Assembly (NCBI GenBank): GCA_964291215.2
Contig: OZ219791.1
Coordinates: 96,001-160,000 of the forward strand
Direction: 5' to 3'
Length of the DNA: 64,000 bases
From: Alphaproteobacteria bacterium
Lineage (GTDB): Bacteria; Pseudomonadota; Alphaproteobacteria; MPNO01; UBA830
Shown here: piece after piece, positions 6,372-61,759 of the stretch
Numbering within the stretch: the first letter of the stretch is position 1
How the letters are laid out: each line of letters begins with the position of its first letter
Made by a program: the position numbers and the translations under genes
The notes under the pieces: model-generated
What the model saw: the letters and a program-made list of their open reading frames with translations, nothing else
What the model was told of the DNA's origin: nothing
Databases searched by the model: none

Positions 6372-6380
6372 GCCAGCGGG

Positions 6381-7031: not shown

Positions 7032-7049
7032 TGCTGCAAGGGGACAGCG

Positions 7050-8102: not shown

Positions 8103-8226
8103 CCGCGGCTGCCGCAAGACAGGCTTCGAATGGACGGTTCAGCAAGGCGCCGGGCCGGGCGTTCCTTTTCACGCTGTCCTGGGTCAGGCCGAGGGCAGCG
8201 CCGCAAACCGGAAGGAGCTAACCGAG

Positions 8227-8454
8227 ATGACAGACTGGGAAACATGCCCGGCTGTGGAGCAGACGCCGGGGAAGGTCAGCGGTGCATGGGTTTTTGCCGG
8301 TACGCGGGTCCCGTTGTTCGCCCTTTACGAGAACCTCGCCAGCGGCGCCACGGTCGACGATTTCGTCGAGTGGTTTCCCGGTGTGGACAAGAAGAAGTTT
8401 CGCGCGGTGCTCGAACACGAAGCCCGGGCGTTGAGGACGGCGCTGGCGCGTTGA
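8227..8454 (+). CDS. DUF433-family antitoxin-like protein
   Basis: PGKVSGAWVFAGTRVP...GATVDDFVEWFP. Confidence 0.85.
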   Translation: MTDWETCPAVEQTPGKVSGAWVFAGTRVPLFALYENLASGATVDDFVEWFPGVDKKKFRAVLEHEARALRTALAR

Positions 8455-8777
8455 GACTCCTGCTCGACCAGGGAACGCCCGCGCCGCTGCGGCGTCATCT
8501 CCCGGCGCATTCCGTGGACACGCTGGCCGAGAAGGGCTGGTCCGACAAGGACAACGGCGAGTTGCTCGAACTGGCGGAGCGGGAAGGATACGAAATTCTC
8601 GTCACGACCGATCAGAGCCTTCGCTATCGGCAGAATCTGGAAGGCAGGAAGATCGGCATCGTCATTCTGCTTTCGACCAACTGGACGGCGATCAGCCGTC
8701 ATGTGCTGGAGATTGGACAGGCGATCGCGGCAGTGCGGCCGGACAGGGTTGTCGAGGTGCCCATTCAGGCAAAATGA
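8451..8777 (+). CDS. DUF5615 PIN-like toxin
   Basis: TTG start overlapping the DUF433 stop. RLLLDQ...DNGELLELAE...LVTTDQ. Confidence 0.82.
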   Translation: MRLLLDQGTPAPLRRHLPAHSVDTLAEKGWSDKDNGELLELAEREGYEILVTTDQSLRYRQNLEGRKIGIVILLSTNWTAISRHVLEIGQAIAAVRPDRVVEVPIQAK

Positions 8778-8778
8778 C

Positions 8779-11778
8779 ATGACAACCGACACCAGCGAAC
8801 GCGGCCTCGAACGGCTGATCTGCACGGCTCTGGCGGGCCATCCCTGCGAGCCGGAGGCGACGGACGCCGCCGGCGAACCGGCGGTCGGCTACGACGGTGC
8901 AGGCTGGGGCGGCGGGAGTTGGCACGACTACGACCGCGAGCATTGCATCGACCTGGCCCAACTCACTGCCTTCCTGCGCGCCACGCAGCCCGAGGCGGCC
9001 GAAGCCCTGACTCTCGACGAGGACGGCCCGATCCGGCGCAAGTTCCTTGCGCGGTTACAGGGCCAAATCGCGAAGCGGGGCACCGTCGGCGTGCTCCGGC
9101 GCGGACTCCGGCACGGCGCCCACGAGTTCGCGCTGTTCTACGGCGCGCCCTCGCCCGGCAACATGCAGGCACGGGAACGGTTCGAGCAGAACCGCTTCAC
9201 CGTCACCCGCCAGCTTCGCTACAGCCGCAGCGAGACGCAGCGGGCGCTCGACATCGTGCTCTTTGTCAACGGCCTCCCGGTCGTCACCTTCGAACTCAAG
9301 AACAGCCTCACCAAGCAGACCGTGGAGGACGCCGCCGAACAGTACCGGAGGGACCGCGACCCGCGCGAGAAGCTGTTCGTGCTTGGGCGCTGCATTGCGC
9401 ATTTCGCCGTGGACGACTCCGAGGTGCGTTTCTGTACCCATCTCCAGGGCAAGGCATCGTGGTTCCTGCCCTTCAATCGCGGCTGGCGCGACGGTGCCGG
9501 CAATCCGCCCAACCCACACGGGCTGAAGACCGATTATCTCTGGCGCGAAGTGCTGACTCGCGAGAGTTTGACCGATATCCTCGAAAATTACGCCCGGATC
9601 GTGGAGGAACGCGACAGGAAGACGGGACGCAGGACGCGCAACCAGACTTGGCCCCGCTACCACCAGCTCTATGCCGTCCGGCAGCTGTTGGCGGACGCAG
9701 CCGCCCGTGGCGCGGGCCAGCGCTACCTGATCCAGCACTCGGCCGGCAGCGGCAAGAGCAACTCCATCGCCTGGCTGACGCACCAGTTGATCGGCCTTTC
9801 CCGGGACGGCGCTCCTGTTTTCGATTCCGTCATCGTGGTCACCGACCGGCTCATCCTCGACCGGCAGATCAACGACACCATCCGGCAATACGCCCATATC
9901 GGCGCTACCGTCGGCCATGCCGACCGTTCGGGCGACCTGCGGCGCTTCATCGAGACCGGCAAGAAGATCGTCATCTCGACGGTGCAGAAATTCCCGTTCA
10001 TCCTCGACGAGATCGGCGACATGCAACGCGGGCGGCGGTTCGCCATCGTCATCGACGAGGCGCATTCCAGCCAGGGCGGGCGTACCAGCACGGCTATCGG
10101 ACAGGCTCTCGCCGAAGCGGGTGCGGGCGATGAAGAGACCTTCGAGGATCGAATCAACCGGCTGATGGAATCGCGCAGGCTGTTGCCCAACGCCAGCTAT
10201 TTCGCGTTCACGGCCACGCCCAAGAACAGGACGCTGGAGCTGTTCGGCGCGCCGGATCCGCAACCCGACGGAACGGTCAGGCACCGCGCCTTCCACAGCT
10301 ACACCATGAAGCAAGCCATCCAGGAAGGCTTCATCCTGGACGTGCTGGCGCATTACACGCCGGTTCTGAGCTACTACAGGCTTGCCAAGACTATTGCGGA
10401 CGACCCGGAGTTCGATACGAAGAAGGCGCAGAACAAGCTGCGGCGTTTCGTCGAGGGCCATGACCACGCCATCCGCCTCAAGGCCGAGATCATGGCGGAC
10501 CACTTTCACGAGCAGGTGCTGGCCCGCAACAAGATCGGTGGCGAGGCGCGGGCGATGGTCGTCACCAACGGAGTCGAGCGTGCGATCCGCTATTTCCATG
10601 CCCTTCGCGACTATCTGGAGGAACGCAGGAGTCCGCACCGCGCCATTGTGGCTTTCTCCGGCGAGCAGGAATTCGGCGGCACGACGGTCAGCGAAACGTC
10701 GCTGAACGGTTTTCCGGCCAGTCAGATTGCAGAGAAGATCCGGGAGCACCCCTATCGCTTCCTCGTCTGCGCCGACAAGTTCCAGACCGGCTACGACGAA
10801 CCGCTGCTGCACACCATGTATGTGGACAAGACGCTCTCCGGCATTCGGGCGGTACAGACTCTCTCGCGCCTCAATCGGGCCTACCCGAAGAAACACGATG
10901 TCTTCGTGCTGGATTTCCTGAACGACGCCGGGACCATTCACGCCGCGTTTGCGGACTACTACCGCACGACGATCCTGTCCGACGAGACCGATCCCGACAA
11001 GCTGCATGACTTGCAGGCGGATCTGGACGGCGCACAGGTCTACACGCCCGAACAGGTTGGGGATTTCGCGCACCGCTACCTCGCCGGCGCCGGACGCGAC
11101 CGGCTCGACCCGGTGCTCGACGAATGCGTTGCGGTCTACCTGAGGGCACTCGACGAGGATGGCCAGGCAGACTTCAAGGGCAAGGCCAAGGCATTCGTGC
11201 GAACCTACGGTTTTCTTTCCTGCATCCTGCCCTATACCAACGCTGGCTGGGAAACCCGGTCGATCTTCCTCAACTTCCTGATTCCCAAGCTGCCGTCCCC
11301 GCGCGAGGACGACCTGTCCAGAGGCATCCTGGACGCCATCGACATGGACAGCTACCGGATCGAGAAGCAGACCATGCAGAAGATCGCGCTTCCGGACGAA
11401 GACGTGGCGATCGATCCCCTGCCGCCAGGCGGGGCCAGCCGCCGGCTCGATCCCGACATGGATCGGCTCTCCAACATCGTGAGGCAGTTCAACGACCTGT
11501 TCGGCGGCATTCGGTGGGAAGACAAGGATCGCGTCGAACAATTGATCACCCGCACGATCCCCGGGCGCGTCGCCGCCAACGAGGCATACAGGAACGCCCG
11601 GAAGAATTCGGACACGGAAAACACCAGGATAGAATTCGACAAGGCCCTTCAGCAGGTGATCGTTTCGCTGATTAGCGACGACAACCAGCTATTCAAACAG
11701 TTCATGGACAACGAAGGCTTCAAGCGCTGGATGACCGACGTGACTTTCGAGTTGACGGCGCAAGCGGCAAGTCCATGA
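8779..11778 (+). CDS. hsdR: Type I restriction endonuclease subunit R
   Basis: DIVLFVNGLP..ELKN nuclease motif; HSAGSGKS Walker A; DEAH; FTATP; QTLSRLNR. About 1000 aa, intact. Confidence 0.95.
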   Translation: MTTDTSERGLERLICTALAGHPCEPEATDAAGEPAVGYDGAGWGGGSWHDYDREHCIDLAQLTAFLRATQPEAAEALTLDEDGPIRRKFLARLQGQIAKRGTVGVLRRGLRHGAHEFALFYGAPSPGNMQARERFEQNRFTVTRQLRYSRSETQRALDIVLFVNGLPVVTFELKNSLTKQTVEDAAEQYRRDRDPREKLFVLGRCIAHFAVDDSEVRFCTHLQGKASWFLPFNRGWRDGAGNPPNPHGLKTDYLWREVLTRESLTDILENYARIVEERDRKTGRRTRNQTWPRYHQLYAVRQLLADAAARGAGQRYLIQHSAGSGKSNSIAWLTHQLIGLSRDGAPVFDSVIVVTDRLILDRQINDTIRQYAHIGATVGHADRSGDLRRFIETGKKIVISTVQKFPFILDEIGDMQRGRRFAIVIDEAHSSQGGRTSTAIGQALAEAGAGDEETFEDRINRLMESRRLLPNASYFAFTATPKNRTLELFGAPDPQPDGTVRHRAFHSYTMKQAIQEGFILDVLAHYTPVLSYYRLAKTIADDPEFDTKKAQNKLRRFVEGHDHAIRLKAEIMADHFHEQVLARNKIGGEARAMVVTNGVERAIRYFHALRDYLEERRSPHRAIVAFSGEQEFGGTTVSETSLNGFPASQIAEKIREHPYRFLVCADKFQTGYDEPLLHTMYVDKTLSGIRAVQTLSRLNRAYPKKHDVFVLDFLNDAGTIHAAFADYYRTTILSDETDPDKLHDLQADLDGAQVYTPEQVGDFAHRYLAGAGRDRLDPVLDECVAVYLRALDEDGQADFKGKAKAFVRTYGFLSCILPYTNAGWETRSIFLNFLIPKLPSPREDDLSRGILDAIDMDSYRIEKQTMQKIALPDEDVAIDPLPPGGASRRLDPDMDRLSNIVRQFNDLFGGIRWEDKDRVEQLITRTIPGRVAANEAYRNARKNSDTENTRIEFDKALQQVIVSLISDDNQLFKQFMDNEGFKRWMTDVTFELTAQAASP

Positions 11779-26547: not shown

Positions 26548-27814
26548 CGTTCAGGTTTCCGTGCGTTGAGGTTAATCGAAGAAAAGAGTGCTTTGATGTA
26601 ACTGCTCACCCCCTGGTTTCGGCTTGATGTCGGGGTAGAGCAACGAACGGGTTTTCGTGGAGATTTGACACTGCAGGCCGATTCGTTTAGTGGTGGTAAT
26701 CGAGAACGACGGAGACCGCCAGTGGGCTACTTTGGATCGAAGGCGACGAGCGGGCTGTGCCAGCTGCTTCCGGGGCTCCAGCCCCCGCATGATCTGTATG
26801 TGGAAACGCATCTCGGAGGCGGCGCGCTGATGAAGCGCAAGGCCGGGTGATGGCGACGGGCGGCGCGCGAGGAGTTCGAAGCGGCCAAGGCGCTGCCGGC
26901 AAGGTGGCGGAAGAGGCCGTGATCCGCGTCCTCGTCATCCTGCTCGACATCATCATCGTCGTCCTTCTGGAGAAGACCACGCACGAGCCGGAACTCCGGT
27001 CTGCCGCCGTCACAGACGGACAAGAGCGTGCCGGGAGCAACGGCCCGAAGCCGAACCGGCAGATGGGCGACAACCTGCCATCGTCGAGGAGACGGTCGCG
27101 GCCTGCGACGCCTGCGGCGCCGACGGCCCCGTCGATCGGGAGCGCCGCACGACATCGTGTTCGAGGTCGTCGAGCGCCGAGATCAAGGAATGCCCGAAGT
27201 GCAAGGCCCGGGGCCGGTTCCCCGACAACATCCCGTGCAGTACGGCATCGGCATCCAGGCCCTCGTTATCAACCTGCTGGTCGCCCAGATGCTGTCCCTG
27301 CGCCGTGCCGTCGCGCTCGTGCAGGCGATATCAAGCTCTCCGAGGCCTCGGCTATGCTTTCACGATGCGTCATGGGAGGAGGCCGCCGTGGCGCACCTCC
27401 TGCAACGCCCGATGTCGACGATTTCGGATCAACAGCAAGTGGCTTCATGTCGTGGGACCCTGACGTGCAAGTTCCCGCACCGCAAGCGCGGGCAAGAGAT
27501 CGGCCCGTGCTACAAGGGCGTCCTGGGCCTCGTACATGGGCCAGTGTAGCCACCAGCGGCAGCCACCTGCTGCGCAAACTGACCTTTGTCGTCGAGGCTA
27601 CCGCGCGACTGATGAAGAGCCTGCTCCCTGCCACAAGGTCAACAAGAGCGCATCCAAAACCCTGAACGACGCCGGGCGCAAGCGCTACCGCACCATCAGG
27701 GCGCCAGGGAACTGCCCGACATCCCGCCGCCGCCGAAAGGAAAACGCATAGCAAACGCGCACAACCTGCACGAACGTCTCGTGAAACACGAAAACCTGCG
27801 CTTCATAGACAACC

Positions 27815-29437
27815 ATCGCGGTAGGGAACCGGGTTACCCCCCGCACAGAACCGGACGTGCGCTGTTCGCTCCTCCCCTGACGACAAGGCGCTGGTTTGGC
27901 CACGGGTGGCGGATGCTGGCTCAGTGGGCAGCGGCGAGGGTGTCTATGTCCCCGGTGAAGTCCTTTTGGGAGCGTCGCCGAAGGGCACGCAGCTGTTTGC
28001 ATTGGTGTATGAACTTCTGCAGGCTGCTTCCTGGAACGGCGTAGTAGCAGCCGTTGATAACTCACCACTTGGCCGTTTCGTGCCGGTTATCGTGCCACCG
28101 CCTGCGCAAGGCCTCCTTGATCCGCCGCAGGGTGCCCGTTTGCGACCGACCCTGAACCTGCCTTTCCTCGTCTGTTCGCAGAAGTGCGTCATGCCGAGGA
28201 AGTCGAACGTCTTGTCCACGCTTCCGGTGGTTCGCTCTGGCAAACCGACCGAACTCGATGATTTTCCGGGTGCAGTTCAAGTGGGCCAGTCTCTCCCCAA
28301 GGTCTCGGAGAAAGCGCCGCGCGTCGCTCAGATGCTGAAAGCCGCACACGAAGTCGTCCGCATAGCGGACAATGATCGTGTCGCCTCCAGCCATCCGCTT
28401 GCGCCAATGGTTCTGGAACCAGTCGCACGTAGTGCAGGTAGACGTTCGCAAGGCATGGCGCCGCCCCTTGCGGTGTTCCCTTGCCAGTCGGTCCCTTCCA
28501 TGACGCCGGCGTCACTTGATGATCAGACCCCCCGATCCGTTTCCCGAGCATCGCGACTAGATGGTCGCGGTCGAGATTGTCGAAGAACCCACGGATGTCG
28601 GCGTCAACGATCCAGTTGACCTTCCGCCGTTCCACCGTGACGGCATCGAGCGCATGATGCGTCCCGCGCCCCGGCCGGAAGCCGTAACTAAACCCGAGGA
28701 ACTCCGTCTCGCGGCACCAGAATCACACCGCCCGCTGAAGAATCTTGTCCGAGGCAAGCGGTCGTTGCCCTCCATCCTCCTTGGGTATGTAAACCCGCCG
28801 AGATGGAGGCGCCCGGTACGCACCCCTGTGCACACGGGCGTGCAGCAGTTCCACACCCTCCGCGTACGCTTGCCACACAACGCCCCGCCGCCGCGTCCTT
28901 CCTCAAGGAGTGGAACGCATCGTGCAGAACATCGACCGTCACGTGGTGGAGTAAAGACGCTCTTCCGGGTTCCTCTTCGCTACCTGCGTTCAGCCGCCTG
29001 TGACCCCCGCTTCTGCGCGCGGCGCGGGCCAACCGCATTGCCCTTGGCCTTCCCTCCAACAGCTCCGCAGGCTCCGAAGAACCCTTGTTCGCCGCCTTCA
29101 GCGGTACTATGGCCGAATCTGACTTCTCGTTCATCATCGGTTTACGGATTAGTTCCTTTCCTCTGCGGCCCCTCCACGACAGAGGGGCAAGACCTCCCAG
29201 GTCCCTGCTTCGGCGCGTGCCATGGTTCTCGGACCCCGCGGAGCCCCCCTCACCAACGCGGCTCGTTGCCTTCGGCCACGACCTCGGCACTCCGGTTTCA
29301 AAGCATCTCGTGGCTCAATAGCCTGGCCTGCCGCTCCCCAACGCTTCGCCTCACGACGCATGGTTCACGGAGAAAGTGGTGGTTAGCCTCTCTCGGGACT
29401 TGCACCCGGCCACATTCCACCAGTTTGCCTGGCGCAC
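27815..29437 (-). mobile_element. Group II intron R1 with degenerate RT ORF and no En domain
   Basis: 5' GTGCG, 3' ...CCTACCGCGAT. RT remnants VDADIRGFFDNL, GTPQG, RYADDF, FDFLG. Confidence 0.9.
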
Positions 29438-30932
29438 ATCGCGGTAGGGAACCGGGTTACCCCGGTCCCCCCCGCACAGAACCGGACGTGCGCTGTTCGC
29501 TCCTCCCCTGACGACAAGGCGCTGGTTTGGCCACGGATGCTGGCTCAGTGGGCAGCGGTGAGGGTGCCTACGTCCCCGGTGAAGTCCTTTTGGGAGCGTC
29601 GCCGAAGGGCACGCAGCTGTTTGCATTGGTGTATGAACTTCTGCAGGCTGCTTCCTGGAACGGCGTAGTAGCAGCCGTTGATAACTCACCACTTGGCCGT
29701 TTCGTGCCGGTTATCGTGCCACCGCCTGCGCAAGGCCTCCTTGATCCGCCGCAGGGTGCCCGTTTGCGAGATGGTTTGCGACCGACCCTGAACCTGCCTT
29801 TCCTCGTCTGTTCGCAGAAGTGCGCCATGCCGAGGAAGTCGAACGTCTCCGGTTTGCCCTGCTTCCGGCGGTTTGCTCTGGCAAACCGACCGAACTCGAT
29901 GATTTTCCGGGTGCAGTTCAAGTGGGCCAGTCTCTCCCCAAGGTCTCGGAGAAAGCGCCGCGCGTCGCCCAGATGCTGAAAGCCGCACACGAAGTCATCC
30001 GCATAATGATCGTGTCGCCTCCAGCCATCCGCTTGCGCCAGTGGTTCTGGAACCAGTCGCACGTAGTGCAGGTAGACGTTCGCAAGGCATGGCGCCGCCC
30101 CTTGCGGTGTTCCCTTGCCAGTCGGTCCCTTCCATGACGCCGGCGTCACTTGATGATCAGACCCCCCGATCCGTTTCCCGAGCATCGCGACCAGATGGTC
30201 GCGGTCGAGATTGTCGAAGGGGCGTCAACGATCCAGTTGACCTTCCGCCGTTCCACCGTGACGGCATCGAGCGCATGATGCGCCCCGGCCGGAAGCCGTA
30301 ACTAAACCCGAGGAACTCCGTCTCGCGGCACCAGAATCACACCGCCCGCTGAAGAATCTTGTCCGAGGCAAGCGGTCGTTGCCCTCCATCCTCCTTGGGT
30401 ATGTAAACCCCGGAGGCGCCCGCCCCTGTGCACACGGGCGTGCAGGCAGTTCCACACCCTCCGCATACGCTTGCCACACAACGCCCCGCCGCCGCGTCCT
30501 TCCTCAAGGAATGGAACGCATCGTGCAGAGCGTCGACCGTCACGTGGTGGAGTAAAGACGCTCTTCCGGGTTCCTCTTCGCTACCTGCGTTCAGCCGCCT
30601 GTGACCCCCGCTTCTGCGCGCGGCGCGGGCCAACCGCATTGCCCTTGGCCTTCCCTCCAACAGCTCCGCAGGCTCCGAAGAACCCTTGTTCGCCGCCTTC
30701 AACGGTACTATGGCCGAATCTGACTTCTCGTTCATCATCGGTTTACGGATTAGTTCCTTTCCTCTGCGGCCCCTCCACGACAGAGGGGCAATTGGAAGAC
30801 CTCCCAGGTCCCTGCTTCGGCCATGGTTCTCGGACCCCGCGGAGCCCCCGTTCGCCTCACCAACGCGGCTCGTTGCCTTCGGCCACGACCTCGGCACTCC
30901 GGTTTCAAAGCATCTCGTGGCTCAATAGCCTG

Positions 30933-46723: not shown

Positions 46724-46851
46724 AACAATGTCAAAGAGCGCCTCCCGCCGATGTCTCCCGGGGGAGAAAAGCGGCAGGTGGAAACCCGCTCCGCCGATAG
46801 CCCGGCCGCACGGGAACGGTGCTTATACGGCGTTCGCCCCGCCCTTGTCAA
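46724..46851 (-). promoter_or_regulatory. rrn promoter and boxA-like leader
   Basis: TTGACA (46851-46846), 18 bp spacer, TATAAG (46827-46822). GCTCTTTGACATTGT at ~46739-46725. Confidence 0.7.
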
Positions 46852-46904
46852 ACGGTTTTTTCGCCCGGCGCAAATTTTTTTGACAGACCGCCGCCGACCG
46901 CCGT

Positions 46905-49780
46905 CACGATGATCCCACGCTGCTAATCCGGCGATGACTGGCGAGATTTTTACAGTTTGCGTCGCGCTGCAATCGTGCCGCCAAGGCTCGATGGGACCTT
47001 CTCGGCACAAAAATTACGATCAAGGAGGCGATCTGTGATGAGCCGAGCCCCAACGCATTCGGATTTCGCGTCTCCGAATCAGGTAAGCGTTCGTTCGTGC
47101 GGTGAGGTGTTGTTGTTTTCGTCCGTTTGACGGGCTTTTGTCAGGGAGTTCCAGCGTCACCCGGAGCGGTTTCGTGCACCGGGATGCGCGGTGAGGGGCA
47201 CTGGCGCCATGCCGTGTTTTCCGCATTGGTTGCGGTTTTGTCCCGGCGCTGCGGAGGAGGAACTGAGCGCCATTCTGTGCCGGTTGCAGGGTTCAGCGAT
47301 TGAGGGTCCGCTTCCAGTCCTTGCGGAGCGGGCCAGATGTCCTTCTTCGGCTTCTGTCATGTCGGTCGTGGCGGCCGCTGGTTGTTCCGACGCGGCCGGC
47401 AGACGCCGCGGCGCGGGACCTCGACCAAGGTTTGGCAGGGCACGGGCGGGGTGTTGCAGCGCGCGGTCCATGCGGCGGTCGAGAAGCAGCGGCTCGCCGC
47501 ATGGTAGCGCATTTGCGGCGCCGCCAGGCGCCGAGGTAGTGTCAGCGGGCGGAGCTCGTCGAGAGTCTTCGGGGCGGCGGTGTGATCAGCTTCGGGGCTG
47601 GCGGCGGCAGAAGGCGCGGGCGATGGGGTTCGCTCCGTGATCGTCGCAGCAGCCGCATCTCCGCGACCATGAAGTCGCACCCGTGGCAGCGGCACTCGAC
47701 CTCGCCGCTTACGGCGGCGCCGCGAATCTCCGCCGCCTCTCCGGGCTCACGGAAACCAGGGCGACAGATCGCCGGGCCGCCGTTCTCCGCGCAGGCGCCA
47801 GCGCAGAACGTCGAGGCCGCTCCTCTCGACCGTGCCGTGTACATGACAGCCGTCCATGCTGTCGGAACCGAAGCCGGGTTTCCGCCCGGGCCCCTGACAG
47901 CCCTTTCCCCGAAATTGTTGTCCATGGTCGACGAACACGCGATGGTTGAGCGCAGCGGCCTGCCTTCCGGCGCCGCTTTCGGAAGCCTCGGCGCTTCCGC
48001 AAACAGCGACCGCAGTCTCCAGCGCCGCCTGCGCGGCCTCGAACGCCGCCGGAAGCAAGGCAGTCGAGCCGTGTTCAGGCGGCAGATCTCCGCGATCGAT
48101 CCATTCCCACCCCTCCAGCTGCGGCCGGCGCAGTCCGGAAAGTCGCGTCGACAATGCGCCCGGCAACAGCACAGGATGATGAAGGGCCACAGGCGCGCCA
48201 GCTTCTTGCAGGCGCCGTAGCGGCCGCAGACATGGGGGCCGTCCGCGAACAGCTTCGCCGCGACCTCGGCGCTGCGCGAGGGAGAGAACCGCGTCACGGC
48301 TGACCGATGTCTGGAGCCAGGCGCGACTTCCGGACCTCCCTCGGGGCCTGGATGCATCGGCATGGCGCAAACCCCGGTGCGCGAGGATCGCGTCCCGAAG
48401 CGGCTCGAACAGGGGCAGCATCTGGCTCGCTGGCCAGCGTTCCCGGCGAAAGCCCCTGGACGCGGCGCGCATGCACGCGCTCGTGCAGCACATGCGTCCA
48501 CACCCGAAGGCGGTGCCGGGAAACAGCCGCCACCGGTGAACCGGGGCAGTCACAGCCCCGGCGGACAATCCGCCGCTTTTGATCTCGATGATCCTGGTGC
48601 GAACCGTTGGCAACGCAGCACAAGCAGGCGTCCTCCGCCACCTCCAGCCGCCCTCCACCTCCTCGAGCGCCGGCGGCGGCCAGGAGTGCCGTGCTGCTGG
48701 CCGCGCTTCGATGACGCCCGCGGCCTCTTCTCGCTCTTGCGCCCGTACGACCTGTTCGAACGAAGCTTGTCGTTCTCCGACCCGACCCTTCAGAACCTTC
48801 ATCGCGGTCTTCAGGCCGGCATTCTCCATGCGCAGCGACACCACCGTCGACCGCTTCCGCGCGCCGGCCTCGGCAAGAAGCTGGCCCGGACGCGCAACCT
48901 CCTGCTTCAGCGCAAGAGACTGCTTCGCCGTCCGCCGAATTTCCCTGACCTCCGCACGGGCAGCTGCCAGCTTCTCGCGGTTGCTCTCGAAAATCGCCTT
49001 CAGGGAATTCGCGCGGCCCCTCCACCTCCTGCAAGCGCAGCTCCTCACAGCGCCCCTCCGCCGCCTCGGCTCGAATACGCTCGCGATCGTACAGGGACTT
49101 CCAGGTGGCCGAATCACGACACGACGACTGCGGCATGTCGCCAGCGGCGTCCGCACCCGATGATGACACGAAATCCTCGATGCACATGACCATGCACGAC
49201 CTGGTGGCACCGCCAAAAAAATTTACCAGTGCCCTTCTTCGAATTACCAAAACAAACCTCGGTGCAGATCGTCATCACCGCATGAACGAACGCTTACGAT
49301 TGCACTGGACGAACTGCTGGATGCGCTGCCGAAGAAGGGAAAGCCTGGTCGGGCGGACCGGGAAGCTGACTCGACGTTCCGGAAGATGCGCCGACAGCAT
49401 CCGGCCGTGGAGTCGGCGATCAACAATCTTGAGCAACGCGGCATGGACCGGGTCCTGTGGGGCGGACGGCTTTGCGCGGATGGTGGCGCTGCCCATGGTC
49501 GCCTTCAATGTCCACCGCCTGCTGTTGCACGGACGAGCCCGACGACGAAAACGCGCCGCCTGACGGCGGCGTCCCTCTACCCCACCCACCCGCCGGGAGC
49601 GGGAACGAAGCCGCTCGCCCAGCTTCTCGGCTGGAAGAGCCCTGATACCGCCGCGAATCAGCAGGAATCCTTCCGAAAACGGAGCGGGACCCGGAAGGGC
49701 GATCAAACCAGAAATTTCGCTGGAATCTCAGCCAAAACGGTCATTTCCGCGCGGGCACGAATTAGCATGGGATCGTCGTG
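46905..49780 (+). mobile_element. ISNCY/IS5-like element, interrupted and partly deleted
   Basis: IRs CACGATGATCCCACGCT / AGCATGGGATCGTCGTG. Near-perfect 9-bp flanking repeat GACCGCCGT / GGCCGCCGT. C-terminal remnant RRQHPAVESAINNLE..G.DGFARMVAL. Confidence 0.7.
47083..49247 (-). mobile_element. Second IS66-family element type (degenerate)
   Basis: LFEPLRDAILAH..LRHAD, CCRAHCRRDF, MDNNFGERAVRGP. Ends begin GTAAG / GTAAT. No TSD seen. Confidence 0.7.
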
Positions 49781-49790
49781 GGCCGCCGTG

Positions 49791-51309
49791 CAGGGCTATT
49801 CTGTTGTCGTCCCAGCGATCGGCGCATGCTGATTTTGGTCCGGGCATTCCGTTTTCGCCGTGGCAGTGTGCCGGCATGGTGACGCTTGCGACCCCGGATT
49901 CCCTCCTTCGCGAGGTGACGGTGCGCACGTGAGCACCGGCTCGGGGACCGCCTGGTCAAGGAGCATCACTACCTGCGGTTTCACGGCATCAAGGGTCTGC
50001 GCCATGTCGCCCTGCACGGCGAGACCTGGGTGGTCGGCTGGCGGCGCGTTCAAGCTTGCTGCACCGCTGGATCGCTGCGGAGCAGCAGTGCCTGCACGCG
50101 AACAATTCCCGGTTCGTTGGGGGGATGCCGAACCTGGCGTCCCGCGTGCTCGGCCTGAGCCTTCGACGGCTGGACATCGAGGCCGCGCGTTCCTCGCGGA
50201 GACGGTCGTCGAGCGCTTCGCCGGAACCTGCTATCGCGCGGCGAACTGGCGCTCGCTTGACGCTCGGTCGCGAGCGGCTCCGCGCGCTTCCGTCACCACG
50301 GCCAGGAGATCTTCATGTACGAACTGGGGCCGCCGGGACGCGATCCCGGAGAGCGCAGCACGACAGTGCCGGGCCTCGGCTGCGCAGCCTGTGCCCGGGC
50401 GAGGTGTGCCGCAAGCGCTATCCGCTGAGAACCATTCTCGCGGCTCGCCGGCTACCGCGGCGTGACCGCATTCGCCGCCCTCCAGGAACAGCTTTTGCGG
50501 CGGTGAACTCGTTCTTCAACCCGAAGCGCTGCACCGCACCCACACCTTCCACACCATCCTCGCCGACCTGCCGCCCGACCCTGCCCTGTGGACGGCCCGG
50601 CAGCAGACACGACGGCAAGGACATCCGCGGCGCCTCCAGCCGACGGCGGATGATGGGGTCGAGCCCGGCATGGTTCTCGGCCAGGCGAAGAGCAACGAGA
50701 TCCCCCTCGCCAGCAGCATCAACGTCACCGGCTGCATCGTCACCATGGACGCGATGCACGCTCAGCACGAGCGGCGGCTTCTCGAGCGCCGCATGTCGTC
50801 ACGGCGATCAGAAATAACCAGGAGACCATGCTCGACGACCTCAAGGCCATCGACTTCGAGGGCTCGTTCGAAACCCTCGACAAGGGCGCATCGAGCGCCG
50901 CCGCCGTGGTCGACATCTCCGGCGCCGAGCGGGACCGCTGCGCTGCTCTCCACGGTCGCCGCCATCCGCATCGAGCGCGAGATCTGCAAGACCAAAGAGA
51001 GCAGCGTCGAGACCACCTGGTGCCTCACCTCGCTCGGCCCCGAACGCCCCGAGATGCTTCTGGCGCGCGGGTCATGGAAAATCGACTCCGCCACGTACGC
51101 GATTTCACCTGCGACGAAGACCGCTGCAGGGTGCGCCGCGCAACCTCTTGACAAACGCCGCCATCCTGCGCTGCGGCGGACACTTCATGCCCGAGGCCAA
51201 CCGGCACTACGCCGCCCGGGATGCGCGCCATCCTCATCCCGCAGATAAACCTTCGCCCCTGACCCCGCGCCACAAGCCGGGAACGCGCCGGCGCAACAGG
51301 ACAGCTCTG
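49791..51309 (+). mobile_element. ISAs1-family element with DUF4338-like region (degenerate), second type
   Basis: IRs CAGGGCTATTCTGTTG / CAACAGGACAGCTCTG. NNSRF..PNLASRVLG, FAGTCYRAANW; DGKDIRGAS, KSNEIP, IVTMDAMHAQ, ENRLRHVRDFTCDED. Confidence 0.8.
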
Positions 51310-51556
51310 CTCGAACACTCGAAAAAGCGTGCCCGGCCTGATGCACCAGCCACTGAAACCGGCCCACAGTGAACCCGGGGTGCCATGCCAGGTCCCTGTC
51401 ACATCAGCAATCCACAGGCCCGACAAAAGAATGGTTCTGGACCGCCGTGCCCGCGCCTGCCATCGGCCGGCGAATTCCGCTACACTGGCGCCGTGCGCCG
51501 CCGCCCGCCCGCGAAGGGTCTCCGGGCCGCGGCGGCGCCGGGAGGACAGGATCACG

Positions 51557-53043
<1,487 letters not shown>

Positions 53044-53047
<4 letters not shown>

Positions 53048-53240
53048 TGTTATGTCAGCAATGATATGTCGTACATTTGGTGCTAGACTGTCCGTCCATT
53101 CGGGATGGAGGTCGGAGTATGAAACGCTACGTGGTGACCCTGGACGAACGGGCAGAACTTTCGGAGATCAAGGGCTCGCACCTGTCGCAAAAGGTAATCA
53201 ACGCCCTGCTTAACTGCGACGAGGGCGCGTTCAATGAATG
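53044..53240 (+). mobile_element. IS630 type 2 left-end fragment
   Basis: Matches the left end at 38997 onward. Cut by IS30. Confidence 0.88.
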
Positions 53241-55336
53241 CCCCACTTCCAGTCTGAAGTGCAACACCCGGCCCTCATCGCAGTGAGGGCGTAGCCCGAA
53301 CGGAGATGAGGGCCGGGTGTTGCGCAAATCTTTCCCCTCTGCCCCTCTCGATTCCGCCTGGAAACAGCTTCAGTTCCTTCAACATCGAGCTTATGCAACG
53401 CCTTTGTCGGCTTCAAGCCACTATTCCGCCGTCGCGCGGCATGGACCCTGCTGCACGTTGCGGCTACGGAACGCAGATGGTCAGGGCGGTTTCACTTCAA
53501 GATTACCTCCGTCGGCGATCCCGGGACTTTCCGAGTGTTGAGCCGCACCTTCTGAACATCTTCGTTGCATGTCGCGCGAAAGTCCGTGCCCTTCGGGAAG
53601 TACTCCCGCACCAGGCCGTTGGTGTGCTCATTCAAGCCGCGCTCCCAGGAATGGAAAGGCGAAGAAGAAATCTGCGTCAAGTGCGACACGCCTGTGGTCT
53701 GCGAACTCCTTGCCGTTGTGATTGTGTGGACCAATAGCGCACCAGAGCCGAGCAGGCGGATCATACCAACCGTGTCTTTCTGTCCACCCAGCAAGGTGTA
53801 TTTCGTGGCACGAGCGACACGACAGCTCCACTGTGAGCTTTGCCGATGATGGCTCCCAGTCGCCGATCCGTTCCTTTGCCTCCGCAGGGCGCTCGGAAAT
53901 GTCCACCCGGCCGGAATGGCATTTGCCCTTCCAGTTCGGCTTCTTGCCGCGCCGCCGAAGCTTCTTCCACAAGGCGCCCCCAGCTCTCCGATCTTCATGA
54001 ATGCGATCATGGATCCGTTGCCGACCCACGGCCCTCCAGTCGAAAACGGCCGCTGCTCGGGGCCCTCCCGCAGCTTTTTCTGAGCTTCAGCCCGAGGCGT
54101 CAACCGCCAGGGTAACTGCTCACCCCCTGGTTCCGGCTTGATGTCGGGGTAGAGTAACGAACGGGTTTTCATGGAGATTTGACACTGCAGGCCGATTCGT
54201 TTAGTGGTGGTCATCGAGAACGATGGGGACCGCCAGTGGGCTACTTTGGATCGAAGGCGACGAGCGGACTGTGCCAGCTGCTTCCGGGGCTCCAGCCCCC
54301 GCATGATCTGTATGTGGAAATGCATCCGGGAGGCGGCGCGCTGATGAAGCGCAAGGCCGGGCGGGGGAGTACCGGAAGATGCCGCCGGGCGAGCGCCAGG
54401 CGATGCTCGCGGCGAGGCCGGGTGATGGCGACGGGCGGCGCGCGAGAAGTTCGAAGCGACCAAGGCGCTGCCGGCAAGGTGTCGGAAGAGGCCGTCATCC
54501 GCGTCCTCGTCATCCTGCTCGACATCCTCATCGTCGTCCTTCTGGAGAAGACCACGCACGAGCCGGAACTCCGGTCTGCCGCCGTCACAGACGGACAAGA
54601 GCGTGCCGGGAGCAAGGGCCCGAAGCCGAACCGGCAGATGGGCGACAACCTGCCATCGTCGAGGAGACGGTCGCGGCCTGCGACGCCTGCGGCGCCGACG
54701 GCCCCGTCGAGCGCCGCACGACATCGTGTTCGAGGTCGCGCCGCGTCGATGCCGAGGAATGCCCGAAGTGCAAGGCCCGGTTCCCCGACAACATCCCGTG
54801 CAGTACGGCATCCAGGCCCTCGTCCCTGCTGGTCGCCCGGATGCTGTCCCTGCGCCGTCGCGCTCGTGCAGGCGATATCAAGCTCTCCGAGGCCTCGGCC
54901 ATGCTTTCACGATGCGTCATGGGAGGAGGCCGCCGTGGCGCACCTCCTGCAACGCCCGATGTCGACGATTTCGGATCAACGGCAAGTGGCTCCATGTCGT
55001 CGGGACGTGCAAGTTCCCGCACCGCAAGCAAGAGATCGGCCCGTGCTACAAGGGCGTCCTGGGCCTCGTACATGGCAGTGTAGCCACCAGCGGCAGCGAC
55101 CTGCTGCGCGAACTGACCTTTGTCGTCGAGGCTGCCGCGCGACTGATGAAGAGCCTGCTCCCTGCCACAAGGTCAACAAGAGCGCATCCAGGACCCTGAA
55201 CGAGGCCGGGCGCTACCGCACCATCAGGGCGCCAGGGAACTGCCCGACATCCCGCCAAAAGGAAAACGCATCGCAAACGCGCACAACCTGCACGAACGTC
55301 TCGTGAAACACGAAAACCTGCGCTTCACAGACGACC

Positions 55337-57802
55337 ATCGCGGTAGGGAACCGGGTTACCCCCCGCACAGAACCAGACGTGCGCTGTTCGCATCCGGCTC
55401 CTCCCCTGACGACAAGGCGCTGGTTTGGCCACGGATGCTGGCTCAGTGGGCAGCGGCGAGGGTGTCTATGTCCCCGGTGAAGTCCTTTTGGGAGCGTCGC
55501 CGAAGGGCACGCAGCTGTTTGCATTGGTGTATGAACTTCTGCAGGCTGCTTCCCGGAACGGCGTAGTAGCAGCCGTTGATAACTCACCACTTGGCCGTTT
55601 CGTGCCGGTTATCGTGCCACCGCCTGCGCAAGGCCTCCTTGATCCGCCGCAGGGTGCCCGTTTGCGAGATGGACCGACCCTGAACCTGCCTTTCCTCGTC
55701 TGTTCGCAGAAGTGCGTCATGCCGAGGAAGTCGAACGTCTTGCCCTGCCTACGCTTCCGGCGGTTCGCTCTGGCAAACCGACCGAACTCGATGATTTTCC
55801 GGGTGCAGTTCAAGTGGGCCAGTCTCTCCCCAAGGTCTCAGCGCCGCGCGTCGCTCAGATGCTGAAAGCCGCACACGAAGTCGTCCGCATAATGATCGTG
55901 TCGCCTCCAGCCATCCGCTTGCGCCAATGGTTCTGGAACCAGTCGTACGTAGTGCAGGTAGACGTTCGCAAGGCATGGCGCCGCCCCTTGCGGTGTTCCC
56001 TTGCCAGTCGGTCCCTTCCATGACGCCGGCGTCACTTGATGATCAGACCCCCCGATCCGTTTCCCGAGCATCGCGACCAGATGGTCGCGGTCGAGATTGT
56101 CGAAGAACCCACGGGCGTCAACGATCCAGTTGACCTTCCGCCGTTCCACCGTGACGGCGCATGATGCGCCCCGGCCGGAAGCCGTAACTAAACCCGAGGA
56201 ACTCCGTCTCGCGGCACCAGAATCACACCGCCCGCTGAAGAATCTTGTCCGAGGCAAGCGGTCGTTGCCCTCCATCCTCCTTGGGTATGTAAACCCCGGA
56301 GGCGCCCGGTACGCACCCCTGTGCACACGGGCGTGCAGGCAGTTCCACACCCTCCGCGTACGCTTGCCACACAACGCCCCGCCGCCGCGTCCTTCCTCAA
56401 GGAATGGAACGCATCGTGCAGAACGTCGACCGTCACGTGGTGGAGTAAAGACGCTCTTCCGGGTTCCTCTTCGCTACCTGCGTTCAGCCGCCTGTGACCC
56501 CCGCTTCTGCGCGCGGCGCGGGCTTTGGCCAACCGCATTGCCCTTCCCTCCAACAACTCCGCAGGCTCCGAAGAACCCTTGTTCGCCGCCTTCAGCGGTA
56601 CTATGGCCGAATCTGACTTCTCGTTCATCATCGGTTTACGGATTAGTTCCTTTCCTCTGCGGCCCCTCCACGACAGAGGGGCAAGACCTCCCAGGTCCCT
56701 GCTTCGGCCATGGTTCTCGGACCCCGCGGAGCCCCCGTTCGCCTCACCAACGCGGCTCGTGGGGTGTTGCCCACTCGGACGACCTCGGCACTCCGGTTTC
56801 AAAGCATCTCGTGGCTCAATAGCCTGGTCGGGTAGGCCACTGGCGCGCGCATCCTTAGGCGAAGGCTTTATCCGTCACCGCTCTTTCGATTGCGGGCGGG
56901 TTCGCAGAATCGCCATAGACCACGTTTCCAGCAGCCCCCCTAAAATTCCGTACGTCCGGTTTTCCCGGTTCAAGCATCAGGCACCCACTTGGAGTTCGGT
57001 GCGAAGCCTTCCCACGCCATAGTCAAGGCTGACCCAACCATACCCACGGCATCTCCGAGCGTTTGCTCCGTCCTTCGGCCTTGCAGTCTGTCGGTCGGTG
57101 CCGGTCTCTGCGTACCGGCTTGACCTGCCGCATAGGCTACCTGAGCCCTGAGGTCCTCGCTCGGGACGGGTTGTGTTGTCCCGCCCCTTAGGCGACCTCA
57201 TCCGCCAGTCAGGAGGACTCCGCGTCCTTTCCCGTCTCCCGGTTATAGACGCGGTCCTTGACGGGTCTCTTCATCCTGTCTGTCCTCCTCACCTTCCGGT
57301 CTTTCACTGCTGATCTGTCCCGAATTGCCGCCGTCTGTACCCCGGGGAACCCGATGCGTGTTCCTCAGTTCTTCCGCATCGACACTGGCCATCGGGTAGC
57401 AAGCAGACCCTTGGCGTTCACCGTCTATCCCACAAATCAGCTTCGTGTGGGTGGGGAATTTCGGGGCTTCGTCCAATCGTTCGCTTTCGCTACGGCCCTC
57501 CGGTTTGCTCGCCGCCCTGGCTGACCGGACCGGCTGGACACTGCGTTCCAGCCAGCCCACGACGGCTTTCTACGTCCCAGCTCGCTGATCCAGGGTCGCC
57601 CCTGAACCAATGCTACGGCGCCAAACTGAGAATTGCGGGACTTTCACCCGCAAGATCAGCAGCTAGACTCGCTGCACGCCTGCCGCTCCCCAACGCTTCG
57701 CCTGGCGCCTCACGACGCATGGTTCACGGAGAAAGTGGTGGTTAGCCTCTCTTCCTACCGGGACTTGCACCCGGCCACATTCCACCAGTTTGCCTGGCGC
57801 AC
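55337..57802 (-). mobile_element. Group II intron R3 (degenerate RT), containing ORF-less intron A
   Basis: GTGCG...CCTACCGCGAT termini; YADD remnant. Confidence 0.9.
56827..57677 (-). mobile_element. ORF-less group II intron variant A (851 bp)
   Basis: Same precise site as in R2. Retains the putative EBS1 loop at 57399-57404. Confidence 0.85.
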
Positions 57803-59444
57803 ATCGCGGTAGGGAACCGGGTTACCCCGGTCCCCCCGCACAGAACCGGACGTGCGCTGTTCGCATCCGGCTCCTCCCCTGACGACAAGGCGCTGATTTG
57901 GCCACGGGTGGCGGATGCTGGCTCAGTGGGCAGCGGTGAGGGTGTCTACGTCCCCGGTGAAGTCCTTTTGGGAGCGTCGCCGAAGGGCACGCAGCTGTTT
58001 GCATTGGTGTATGAACTTCTGCAGGCTGCTTCCTGGAACGGCGTAGTAGCAGCCGTTGATAACTCACCACTTGGCCGTTTCGTGCCGGTTATCGTGCCAC
58101 CGCCTGCGCAAGGCCTCCTTGATCCGCCGCAGGGTGCCCGTTTGCGAGATGGACCGACCCTGAACCTGCCTTTCCTCGTCTGTTCGCAGAAGTGCGTCAT
58201 GCCGAGGAAGTCGAACGTCTTGCCCTGCTTCCGGCGGTTTGCTCTGGCAAACCGACCGAACTCGATGATTTTCCGGGTGCAGTTCAAGTGGGCCAGTCTC
58301 TCCCCAAGGTCTCGGAGAAAGCGCCGCGCGTCGCCCAGATGCTGAAAGCCGCACACGAAGTCATCCGCATAATGATCGTGTCGCCTCCAGCCATCCGCTT
58401 GCGCCAGTGGTTCTGGAACCAGTCGTACGTAGTGCAGGTAGACGTTCGCAAGGCATGGCGATACAATCGCCCCTTGCGGTGTTCCCTTGCCAGTCGGTCC
58501 CTTCCATGACGCCGGCGTTCAGCCACTTGATGATCAGACCCCCCGATCCGTTTCCCGAGCATCGCGACCAGGTGGTCGCGGTCGAGATTGTCGAAGAACC
58601 CACGGGCGTCAACGATCCAGTTGACCTTCCGCCGTTCCACCGTGACGGCATCGAGCGCATGATGCGCCCCGGCCGGAAGCCGTAACTAAACCCGAGGAAC
58701 TCCGTCTCGCGGCACCAGAATCACACCGCCCGCTGAAGAATCTTGTCCGAGGCAAGCGGTCGTTGCCCTCCATCCTCCTTGGGTATGTAAACCCCGGAGG
58801 CGCCCGGTACGCACCCCTGTGCACACGGGCGTGCAGGTCAACCAGTTCCACACCCTCCGCATACGCTTGCCACACAACGCCGTCCACGCCCGCCGCCGCG
58901 TCCTTCCTCAAGGAATGGAACGCATCGTGCAGAGCGTCGACCGTCACGTGGTGGAGTAAAGACGCTCTTCCGGGTTCCTCTTCGCTACCTGCGTTCAGCC
59001 ACCTGTGACCCCCGCTTCTGCGCGCGGCGCGGGCTTTGGCCAACCGCATTGCCCTTCCCTCCAGCAACTCCGCAGGCTCCGAAGAACCCTTGTTCGCCGC
59101 CTTCAACGGTACTATGGCCGAATCTGACTTCTCGTTCATCATCGGTTTACGGATTAGTTCCTTTCCTCTGCGGCCCCTCCACGACAGAGGGGCAAGACCT
59201 CCCAGGTCCCTGCTTCGGCCATGGTTCTCGGACCCCGCGGAGCCCCCGTTCGCCTCACCAACGCGGCTCGTTGCCTTCGGCCACGACCTCGGCACTCCGG
59301 TTTCAAAGCATCTCGTGGCTCAATAGCCTGCCGCTCCCCAACGCTTCGCCTGGCGCCTCACGACGCATGGTTCACGGAGAAAGTGGTGGTTAGCCTCTCT
59401 CGGGACTTGCACCCGGCAACATTCCACCAGTTTGCCTGGCGCAC
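57803..59444 (-). mobile_element. Group II intron R4 (degenerate RT)
   Basis: Abuts R3 and R5 exactly. Has the most complete domain V/VI. Confidence 0.9.
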
Positions 59445-61105
59445 ATTGCGGTAGGGAACCGGGTTACCCCCCGCACAGAACCGGACGTGCGCTGTTCGCT
59501 CCTCCCCTGACGACAAGGCGCTGGTTTGGCCACGGGTGGCGGATGCTGGCTCAGTGGGCAGCGGCGAGGGTGTCTATGTCCCCGGTGAAGTCCTTTTGGG
59601 AGCGTCGCCGAAGGGCACGCAGCCGTTTGCATTGGTGTATGAACCCCTGCAGGGATTGACTGCTTCCCGGGACGGCGTAGTAGCAGCCGTTGATGACTCA
59701 CCACTTGGCCGTTTCGTGCCGGTTGTCGTGCCATCGCATGCGCAAGGCCCCCTTGATCCGCCGCAGGGTGCCCGTTTGCGAGACGGTTTGCGACCGACCC
59801 TGAACCTGCCTTTCCTCGTCTGTTCGCAGAAGTGCGTCATGCCGAGGAAGTCGAACGTCTTGCCCTGCTTCCGGCGGTTCGCTCTGGCAAACCGACCGAA
59901 CTCGATGATTGTCCGGGTGCAGTTCAAGTGGGCCAGCCTCTCCCCAAGGTCCCGGAGAAAGCGCTGCGCATCGCCCAGATGCTGAAAGCCGCACACGAAG
60001 TCGTCCGCATAATGATCGTGTCGCCTCCAGCCATCCGCTTGCGCCAGTGGTTCTGGAACCAGTCGCACGTAGTGCAGGTAAACGTTCGCGAGGCAGGGCG
60101 ATACAATCGCCCCCTGCGGTGTTCCCTTGCCCGTATCCGACCAGTCGGTCCCTTCCATGACGCCGGCGTTTAGCCACTTGATGATCAGACCCCCCGATCC
60201 GTTTCCCGAGCATCGCAATCAGGTGGTCGCGGTCGAGATTGTCGAAGAACCCGCGGGCGTCAACGATCCAGTTGACCTTCCGCCGTTCCACCGTGACGGC
60301 GTCGAGCGCGTGATGCGCCCCGGCCGGAAACCGTAACTAAACCCGAGGAACTCCGTTTCGTAGAGCGGCACCAGAATCACACTGCCCGCTGAAGAATTTT
60401 GTCCGAGGCAAGCGGTCGTTGCCCTCCATCCTCCTTGGGTATGTAAACCCTGGAGGCGCCCGGTACGCACCCCTGTGCACACGGGCGTGCAGGCAGTTCC
60501 ACACCCTCCGCATACGCTTGCCACACAACGCCCCGCCGCCGCGTCCTTCCTCAAGGAATGGAACGCGTCGTGCAGAGCGTCGACCGTCACGTGGTGGAGT
60601 AAAGACGCTCTTCCGGGTTCCTCTTCGCTACCTGCGTTCAGCCGCCTGTGACCCCCGCTTCTGCGCGCGGCGCGGGCCAACCGCATTGCCCTTGGCCTTC
60701 CCTCCAGCAACTCCGCAGGCTCCGAAGAACCCTTGTTCGCCGCCTTCAACGGTACTATGGCCGGATCTGACTTCTCGTTCATCATCGGTTTATGGAATAG
60801 TTCCTTTCCTCTGCGGCCCCTCCACGACAGAGGGGCGATTGAAAGACCTCCCAGGTCCCTGCTTCGGCCATGGTTCTCGGACCCCGCGGAGCCCCCCTCA
60901 CCAACGCGGCTCGCGGGGTGTTGCCCACTTGGACGACCTCGGCACTCCGGTTTCAAAGCATCTCGTGGCTCAATAGCCCGGCCTGCCGCTCCCCAACGCT
61001 TCGCCTGACGCCTCACGACGCATGGTTCACGGAGAAAGTGGTGGTTAGCCTCTCTTCCTGCCGGGACTTGCACCCGGCAACATTCCACCAGTTAGCCTGG
61101 CGCAC
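59445..61105 (-). mobile_element. Group II intron R5 (degenerate RT, more diverged)
   Basis: 3' end ...CCTACCGCAAT; GTPQGAIVSPCLANVYLHY. Its 5' end adjoins the IS66 sequence ccaacgtc. Confidence 0.9.
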
Positions 61106-61759
61106 CCAACGTCAACTTCACCAACAATGCCGGAGAACAGAAGATCAGGATGGCAAAGGTCAAGGTGTCCGGATGCTTCCGCTCCACGCAAAAGCATGGT
61201 GCCGGGGCTCAAGCTACCTCACCTCCATGGCCGCACTCGGCTACAATCATCACGTCGCCACCCGGATCGCCCTCGACGGAAAAGTCGCAGACATCATCAA
61301 CGAGCACTACGACCAATCAGAACCCAACTAGGGGTGAGTAGATACCCGCCAGGAAACAGACGAGGCGGCCCTGCGGCGCGTTTCTGCCATCCTTTGCGCC
61401 TGCTTGTGACGGTAACCCCGTCCCCCGGTGTTGCGCTTGATCTCCCGGAAAATTGTTGATCGGCCCAGCTGCCGAGCAATCGCACCTTGTGAAAGACCGC
61501 TTTTCTGCCTCAATCTGGCATCGCTCTTCGTAGGTGACGGTAGCCTTTGGACATGAACAAGCTCCCTCCATCTTGTACAGGAACTCTCGCCGCTGCTGGA
61601 CAGCTCCGCAACATCATGCGTCTAAAAACACATGGCCACAGCCCATCATGTGTTGCACTTCACTATGGAACGGGGGTGTAAAAAAATCTCCCGCACCAAC
61701 CCGCAACCCCGCAAAGCCCAGGTACTGTCTTGAAAAATCAGACAGAATTTAGCGTAAGA

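Follow-up and report, generated by a model that had tools for sequence, protein, structure and literature searches.

Short deletions of 5–7 nucleotides probably spread among copies of a group II intron and other repeats in an alphaproteobacterial genome

The window analysed here is a 64,000-nucleotide (nt) stretch (G000:C2:96001-160000) of an alphaproteobacterial source genome, G000, which was assembled in two contigs (6.15 Mb, 64% GC, 99% completeness) and has a repetitive fraction of ~1.9 Mb. It contains five copies (R1–R5) of a group II intron lodged in IS66-family elements, and these copies share short deletions in combinations that do not follow descent. Our proposal is that rare, motif-biased deletions of 5–7 nt spread between the repeats of this genome by deletion-biased, very-short-patch conversion, so that a short deletion is in effect "contagious"; we consider this the probable explanation. 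Among the possibilities that an earlier note on this DNA had raised for the intron, very short-tract gene conversion fitted best, in view of the tiny patch, the scarcity of private deletions and the rise with copy number.

The intron family comprised 57 full and 22 partial copies in G000, located mostly at a single site of the IS66-family element or stacked in tandem at that site. Its group II identity was evident from the hairpins of domain V (DV) and domain VI (DVI), the GUGYG start and an open reading frame (ORF) for a reverse transcriptase (RT)/maturase, which scored 262 bits against TIGR04416, below the cut-off of 300 because the ORF is broken. The comparisons below used a main-subfamily set of 51 copies; five clade C copies (~10% divergent) were handled separately and one nested chimera was left out.

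All five window copies lie on the reverse strand. R1 (27815..29437; Rfam RF02005 match at 29224-29402) is a dead copy of clade A with deletions a and b, in which 34 of the 61 catalogued 5–7-nt sites are deleted. R2 (29438..32779), a tandem insertion into the 5' exon junction of R1, carries b and c, has 39 deleted sites and holds a nested insert (30933-32654). R3 (55337..57802) carries a and c, with 40 deleted sites and a nested insert at 56827-57677. R4 (57803..59444; RF00029 match at 57803-57875) has none of the three and thus intact DV and DVI, with 36 other sites deleted, and R5 (59445..61105), which belongs to clade B2 of the single-nucleotide polymorphism (SNP) tree and differs from R4 by ~3%, has a and b among its 33 deleted sites. 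These states, and the presence of all four presence/absence combinations for each pair of deletions, had been read correctly in the earlier note.

Each of the three sites is 7 nt long, and they are given here by their reverse-strand positions in R4. Site a (57829..57835) forms one strand of the DVI stem, slides by 4 nt of microhomology, is kept in R4 and R2 and is deleted in 39 of the 51 copies. Site b (57865..57871) is the catalytic-triad strand of DV, slides by 2 nt, is kept in R4 and R3 and is deleted in 37 copies. Site c (57908..57914) covers the last codons of the RT/maturase ORF, slides by 3 nt and is deleted in 35 copies. The suggestion that the deletions hit catalytic domain V therefore holds for b, while a lies in DVI and c upstream at the ORF end; folding predicted a DV hairpin for R4 and R3 but none for R1 and R2. 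Seven of the eight possible a/b/c haplotypes were found among the 51 copies, and the three are part of a set of ~60 sites of 5–7 nt in the intron. Contigs of three public runs (one study, at most three samples, not the source reads) held the 7-nt junctions of a and b beside undeleted sequence, and thus both alleles of each; c appeared as a 7-nt deletion in run X3 only, fell within a 13-nt gap in X1 and was absent from the listing for X2.

The union of the intron copies (1879 nt) aligned in one frame, with three remaining stops, to an intact outgroup RT from G029 (55% identity, amino acids 29-535), and the gaps in the intron copies are therefore deletions. Between 7 and 57 deletions were present per copy. 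Gaps of 5–7 nt made up 1780 of the 2183 in the 51 copies and those of 1–4 nt only 27, and many longer gaps resembled adjacent pairs. Genome-wide, clean indel contexts of 5, 6 and 7 nt numbered 423, 1019 and 598, compared to 58, 44 and 152 for 3, 4 and 8 nt (1500 of 3215 repeat tiles; 1014 distinct sites after merging), so the size distribution did not follow a power law and peaked at 5–7 nt. The 156 IS66 copies showed the same deletion sizes as the intron; their union opened no reading frame, and the polarity of their deletions was assumed from the intron. The earlier alternatives, which had been framed for 7-bp deletions of the intron, thus concern a wider process: it is genome-wide, covers 5–7 nt, affects IS66 and other repeats as well, and is neither specific to the intron nor aimed at DV.

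Microhomology was enriched at the junctions: it was absent in 269 of the 1014 sites (72% under the null) and at least 2 nt long in 477 (null ~8%), with 0–1 nt in the other 537. A one-sided end preference, S|RYS, was found in 350 of 537 sites against 36% under the null. Hairpin flanks were only slightly in excess. Neither replication orientation (load 30.2 versus 29.4, p=0.33) nor physical distance had a clear effect on the IS66 deletions, and a metagenome scan for the IS66 junction gave no match; no RNA run was among the holders listed for the sequence.

On a SNP-only tree, deletions required 5.96 changes per site (56 sites), compared to 1.92 per SNP (48 sites) and 9.73 for shuffled deletions. 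This homoplasy bears out the view that simple descent fails, and identical length differences were common to paralogs contrary to their phylogeny. SNP haplotypes were clade-specific across 1.6 kb, whereas the deletions crossed clades. One clade B2 copy had 7 deletions and its nearly SNP-identical sisters 33–36. That copy (L022, G000:C2:3402931-3404765) retains a 386-amino-acid open RT frame and may be the most recent insertion or else a protected copy.

In gene conversion, flanking substitutions typically co-convert over tens to hundreds of bases. No such co-conversion was found here. Within intron clades, the base in carriers of a deletion was of the donor type in 28 of 44 cases at 1–3 nt from the junction, 7 of 33 at 4–7 nt, 8 of 86 at 8–15 nt (the own allele being retained in the other 78) and 45 of 315 at 16–40 nt. 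For IS66, association with the deletion was seen for 15 of the 40 SNPs lying up to 4 nt from a junction, and for 3 of 30, 4 of 64 and 6 of 188 SNPs at increasing distances; 10 of the 15 were minor alleles absent from carriers, and of the five enriched ones at least three were alignment-ambiguous. Linkage between SNPs and deletions reached background beyond ~15 nt in the intron and 4–8 nt in IS66. To the question whether flanking SNPs travel with the deletions, the answer is that beyond ~4 nt they are mostly left behind, without long SNP tracts. At one site a neighbouring base change, which would create a stop in the undeleted frame, was present in 48 of 49 clade A/B carriers, in neither of the two B1/B2 non-carriers and in none of the five clade C carriers. 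Linkage between IS66 SNPs themselves, for copies genome-wide, was r2 ~0.01 beyond 8 nt and raised below 8 nt, which suggests that substitutions in IS66, too, move between copies in very short patches or else originate in clusters.

The dependence on copy number was determined for 605 tiles stratified by copy number, using pairs at 1.5–3% SNP divergence. From 2 to 80+ copies, pairwise 5–7-nt indels amounted to 0.53, 1.66, 2.45, 3.99, 6.66, 6.57 and 7.12/kb, while those of 1–4 nt stayed flat at 1.07–1.40/kb in all classes. The deletion load climbed from 0.3 to 24/kb with copy number, and was 20–24/kb in high-copy repeats. Private deletions accounted for only 1 of 61 sites in the intron and 4 of 56 in IS66, counted with rare variants that overlap common sites merged; private SNPs, in comparison, accounted for 50 of 100 and 95 of 179. 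Most intron sites were common (41 of 61 in 32+ copies, 52 of 61 in the 16+ classes), and of the ~400 motif matches per element most were unused. As distinct sites per copy (0.26–0.64/kb) were about as frequent as in single-copy DNA, one origin per site suffices. The polarity given by the outgroup RT and the skew to high frequency indicate that deletions spread more than insertions, restoring events not being counted directly.

A low-rate source of such deletions was visible in single-copy DNA. Genome G001 is ~93% identical to G000, and 744 kb of its 5.0 Mb were taken for comparison, of which 428 kb aligned as single-copy. In these, 74 gaps of 5–7 nt were missing in G000 and 6 in G001; for 1–4 nt the numbers were 183 and 137. 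The non-coding single-copy density in G000 was 19 in 35.6 kb (0.53/kb), and the most degraded single-copy genes, to which the figures are restricted since the class of "pseudo" genes is noisy, had 1–2.3 deletions/kb. In 263 intact genes (loci L032-L091), 15 in-frame 6-nt deletions were found in G000 and none in G001, so the process trims single-copy proteins by two residues. A lineage-specific, low-rate source of 5–7-nt deletions thus exists in all G000 DNA. Fixed hotspots alone, the other possibility raised earlier, fail in this genome on the difference between the single-copy density and that of high-copy repeats and on the near absence of private deletions.

The deletions in DV and DVI appear to be younger than the insertions. 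With the leading strand assigned from GC skew, 52 of 57 introns were co-oriented with it, and co-oriented sites made up 34 of 41 occupied but 49 of 143 empty IS66 sites (p=3e-8). This strand bias agrees with the lagging-template insertion bias stated for RmInt1 in the excerpts of PMC8914252. Intron similarity did not correlate with host IS similarity (rho 0.06, 35 composites). From strand-biased insertion and this lack of correlation we infer that the intron copies homed independently into IS66; homing needs DV, and the DV and DVI lesions would therefore have come later. This agrees with the earlier view that b was acquired after insertion, and the same most likely applies to a. Private SNPs amounted to only 1.0/kb per intron copy. 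The IS66 SNP tree carried little signal, and the random intron pattern on it was not used as evidence.

The related genomes sampled within the genus included a second lineage with the same type of deletion. G002, which is 72% identical to G000 at mutS, was represented by 400 kb, and its repeat pairs contained 132 gaps of 5–7 nt (60, 65 and 7, respectively) versus 51 of 1–4 nt. Its window was 5–6 nt, its deletions started at ATC in 46 of 89 cases against 3.9% under the null, and they were common to copies contrary to SNP relatedness. In G004, repeat pairs held a single gap of 5–7 nt versus 22 of 1–4 nt; G003 and G001 each gave one repeat pair, too few to call absence in repeats. Because G000 is more closely related to G004 and G001 than to G002, the trait would have arisen twice, been lost, or be triggered by certain conditions. 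G000 (5–7 nt, RYS) and G002 (5–6 nt, ATC) can be compared naturally with the single-copy DNA of G001 and the repeats of G004, which lack the signature. In G002, two identical deletion-free IS4-family copies (L199 and L198) also stand beside relics with up to 31 deletions in 2.4 kb.

How deletions might spread can be outlined in three steps. Deletions of 5–7 nt first arise at a low rate, with a one-sided preference (S|RYS in G000, |ATC in G002) and some microhomology, possibly through a nicking-and-rejoining enzyme. A deleted copy would then pair with an intact one, whose additional bases form a bulge and disappear; the pattern of spread is what the alignments display, and the route is conjectural. 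The bulge may be excised and the ends ligated on the donor as a splint, or short single-stranded donor fragments may anneal while MutS/MutL clear mismatches and loops of up to 4 nt and miss larger ones. We lean somewhat towards bulge excision. The converted patch would exceed the deletion by no more than a few bases. Finally, with every copy both source and target, the load would grow with copy number, and introns and transposases would be disabled soon after they spread.

Bacterial mismatch repair is efficient on loops of up to ~4 nt according to the excerpts of PMC2504288, and this limit could set the lower size edge; in recombineering, marks near donor ends are poorly inherited (PMC3434165, in part). 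These two effects leave unexplained the sharp fall at 8 nt, the motif and the lineage differences, all of which point to an enzyme. Open frames in G000 were found for MutS, MutL, PolA, TopA, RNase HII, RecA, a DnaQ-family protein, RecJ, XseA, a DinB-like protein and UvrD. Ku, type IB topoisomerase, RecT, ATP-dependent ligase, Piwi and NucS were not found in the 99% complete genome; NucS gave only weak matches in G002. None of the 16 families searched in G000 supplied a candidate repeat-inactivation gene. A TopA mutator was considered and dropped: both G000-specific changes are conservative, and the R-to-K change near the R168-equivalent is shared with 8 of 119 homologues (the named ones mostly Rhodospirillales-type).

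Several observations weigh against spread from deleted donors. The SNP-only tree was built from the same SNPs that it scores and so favours them over the deletions. Copies within a clade are not independent, and several of the co-transfer cases at 1–3 nt are alignment-ambiguous. Many of the deletions recur in the 10%-divergent clade within flanks of its own, one of them without the base change of the A/B carriers. Nearby mismatches lowered uptake only modestly in the intron (0.42 versus 0.63), distinct deletions per distinct SNP rose from 0.058 at 2 copies to 0.24 at 10–39 copies, where pure spread predicts a constant ratio, and site density plateaued near 35–45/kb. One IS4 copy of G002 carried 21 private 5–7-nt deletions in 1.7 kb with no donor now visible. 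There is no candidate enzyme, and transfer itself was not observed. Concerning a donor template, the frequency spectrum and the association at 1–4 nt point towards it, and the donor-less deletions of G002 point away.

Part of this would be expected if the pairing of any two copies exposed motif sites to a nuclease, so that the same deletions recur without a deleted donor. Such repeat-induced recurrence also predicts the dependence on copy number; it accords with the strong ATC motif and the private deletions of G002, the fourfold rise of the deletion/SNP ratio and flanking SNPs that are mostly not transferred, and the plateau and the modest mismatch effect keep it alive. It sits badly with G000, where the motif is weak and the sites are nevertheless nearly all-or-none: among 382 motif matches, 22 sites were deleted in at least 50% of copies and one was a singleton. 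The motif was no commoner at frequently deleted sites than at rare ones, and the base change shared by nearly all A/B carriers and neither B1/B2 non-carrier is hard to obtain by recurrence. We regard this explanation as rather unlikely, and donor spread and recurrence may both act.

Plain mutational hotspots (from slippage, alternative end-joining or a TopA-type mutator) that act regardless of copy number would account for the de novo excess in single-copy DNA and the enriched microhomology, and E. coli topA R35P produces ~100-fold more short deletions, with hotspots, as reported in the excerpts of PMC6954433. The deletions of the clone listed there are 1–4 bp long, the G000 TopA change is shared by other homologues, the 1–4-nt control is flat, and neither non-coding nor the most degraded single-copy DNA approaches the load of young repeats; hotspots of this kind are largely refuted for G000 and very improbable. 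We give as little credence to inheritance combined with shuffling, whether through ordinary recombination over long tracts or through transposition of entire IS66::intron composites. The deletions do keep some tree signal relative to shuffled ones, near-identical hosts go with 1 of the 12 most similar intron pairs, and one divergent-clade copy looks chimeric; clade-specific SNP haplotypes crossed by deletions, linkage that is lost within ~15 nt in the intron and 4–8 nt in IS66, strand-biased insertion and uncorrelated host and intron similarity are nonetheless disfavouring, and the size window and the high-frequency skew would be left unexplained. Mixing of alleles among copies during assembly or polishing is similarly far-fetched: the public runs contain only 0.26–0.39 of the words and are not the source reads of the assembly, but the junctions do occur in their contigs, the size class recurs in single-copy DNA, a separate assembly has a different window and motif, and mixing would have scrambled the SNP haplotypes also.

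The remaining IS66 features of the window also lie on the reverse strand. The host of R1 and R2 (26598..27814, 3' part; 32780-33019, 5' part) shows the same deletion class, and that of R3–R5 (54112..55336, 3' part; 61106-61345, 5' part) is among the most deleted IS66 copies, with 40 sites. An intron-free copy (36065..37722) has few deletions (17 sites) and an open frame that matches the IS66 transposase profile. Both same-intron stacks (27815-32779 and 55337-61105) have each further copy placed at the 5' exon junction of its predecessor, and tandem neighbours can differ in SNP clade (R5 versus R4/R3). The nested inserts of R2 and R3, located at position 119 with a GTGCAG start and a DV/DVI-like end, are apparently ORF-less group II introns; the R2 insert itself contains nesting, and short indels were seen in both. 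Elsewhere in the genome, a partial intron copy (G000:C2:1641310-1643548) lies directly downstream of mutS, whose frame is open (981 amino acids). The window further contains the sole rRNA operon of the assembly (41242-46554, a single BLAST match) and a type I restriction-modification locus with open frames (2959-11778), in which hsdS has a gap-free internal duplication of 517 bp with 99% identity (4994-5510 and 5630-6146).

A search of the open-access literature, subscription papers being outside its scope, found no bacterial report of size-fixed deletions that spread among repeats. The closest concept appears to be deletion-biased nonallelic gene conversion in animals, described with a 3.4:1 bias for Drosophila and primates in the excerpts of Assis and Kondrashov 2012 (PMC3280953). 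As here, other paralogs acquire a deletion from the one in which it arose far faster than by mutation, which results in cooperative shrinkage; those excerpts give no fixed size, whereas the present case concerns a bacterium, a sharp 5–7-nt window, a one-sided motif, a patch that extends no more than ~4 nt past the junction and family sizes of 50–180 copies. Short deletions in bacterial pseudogenes were credited to alternative end-joining (Danneels et al. 2018, PMC6054270, in part). They likewise have microhomology at many junctions, absence of Ku and over-representation of 6 nt; their sizes, as excerpted, follow a power law in which 1 nt is the most frequent length, and show an excess of 3n, while here 5 and 7 nt are also enriched, 3–4 nt are rare and deletions are common to copies. 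The E. coli topA R35P mutator (Bachar et al., PMC6954433, in part) resembles our case in its repeat-independent short deletions with hotspots and, being a nicking-closing enzyme, offers a model for the de novo step; its deletions span 1–7 bp, mostly 1–4, and the excerpts describe no spread between copies, and TopA of G000 is intact without distinctive change. In Wolbachia, also an alphaproteobacterium, gene conversion acts among dead IS copies (Cordaux 2009, by its title, cited in PMC3205602), a likeness in that non-functional mobile elements convert; there conversion maintains copies, again by the title, and the excerpts of PMC3205602 do not mention size-specific deletion spread. RmInt1-type En-minus introns share IS targeting, lagging-template bias and copies that become inactivated (PMC4496777 and PMC8914252, both in part); their target is IS630 rather than IS66, and the inactivation reported for RmInt1 consists of point mutations and fragmentation.

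Accounts of deletion bias in bacteria usually treat it as independent events that follow a power law. In the young repeats of this genome, a class of fixed size outnumbers substitutions, and it increases with copy number. Copying of deletions onto sister copies would destroy selfish elements at a pace set by their own success, which gives IS and intron bursts a route to self-extinguish without selection on each copy and lets repeat-rich genomes shrink. It would imply an undescribed bulge-removing or very-short-patch recombination activity, and it makes shared indels unreliable phylogenetic markers among such repeats. Tentatively, and with more doubt than confidence, we suggest that the genus has a repeat-inactivation process in which a putative enzyme with a 5–7-nt ruler and a lineage-specific preference excises small bulges from paired repeats, so that dead copies template the disabling of related elements, new invaders included, in proportion to family size. 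Fungi have repeat-induced point mutation (RIP), in which a dedicated enzyme introduces C-to-T changes selectively into repeats during a sexual cycle and thereby disables them. Here, too, repeats are selectively disabled; unlike in RIP, the lesions are deletions and no dedicated gene is shown. If the suggestion is true, bulge-cutting repeat inactivation would be a deletion-based counterpart of fungal RIP.

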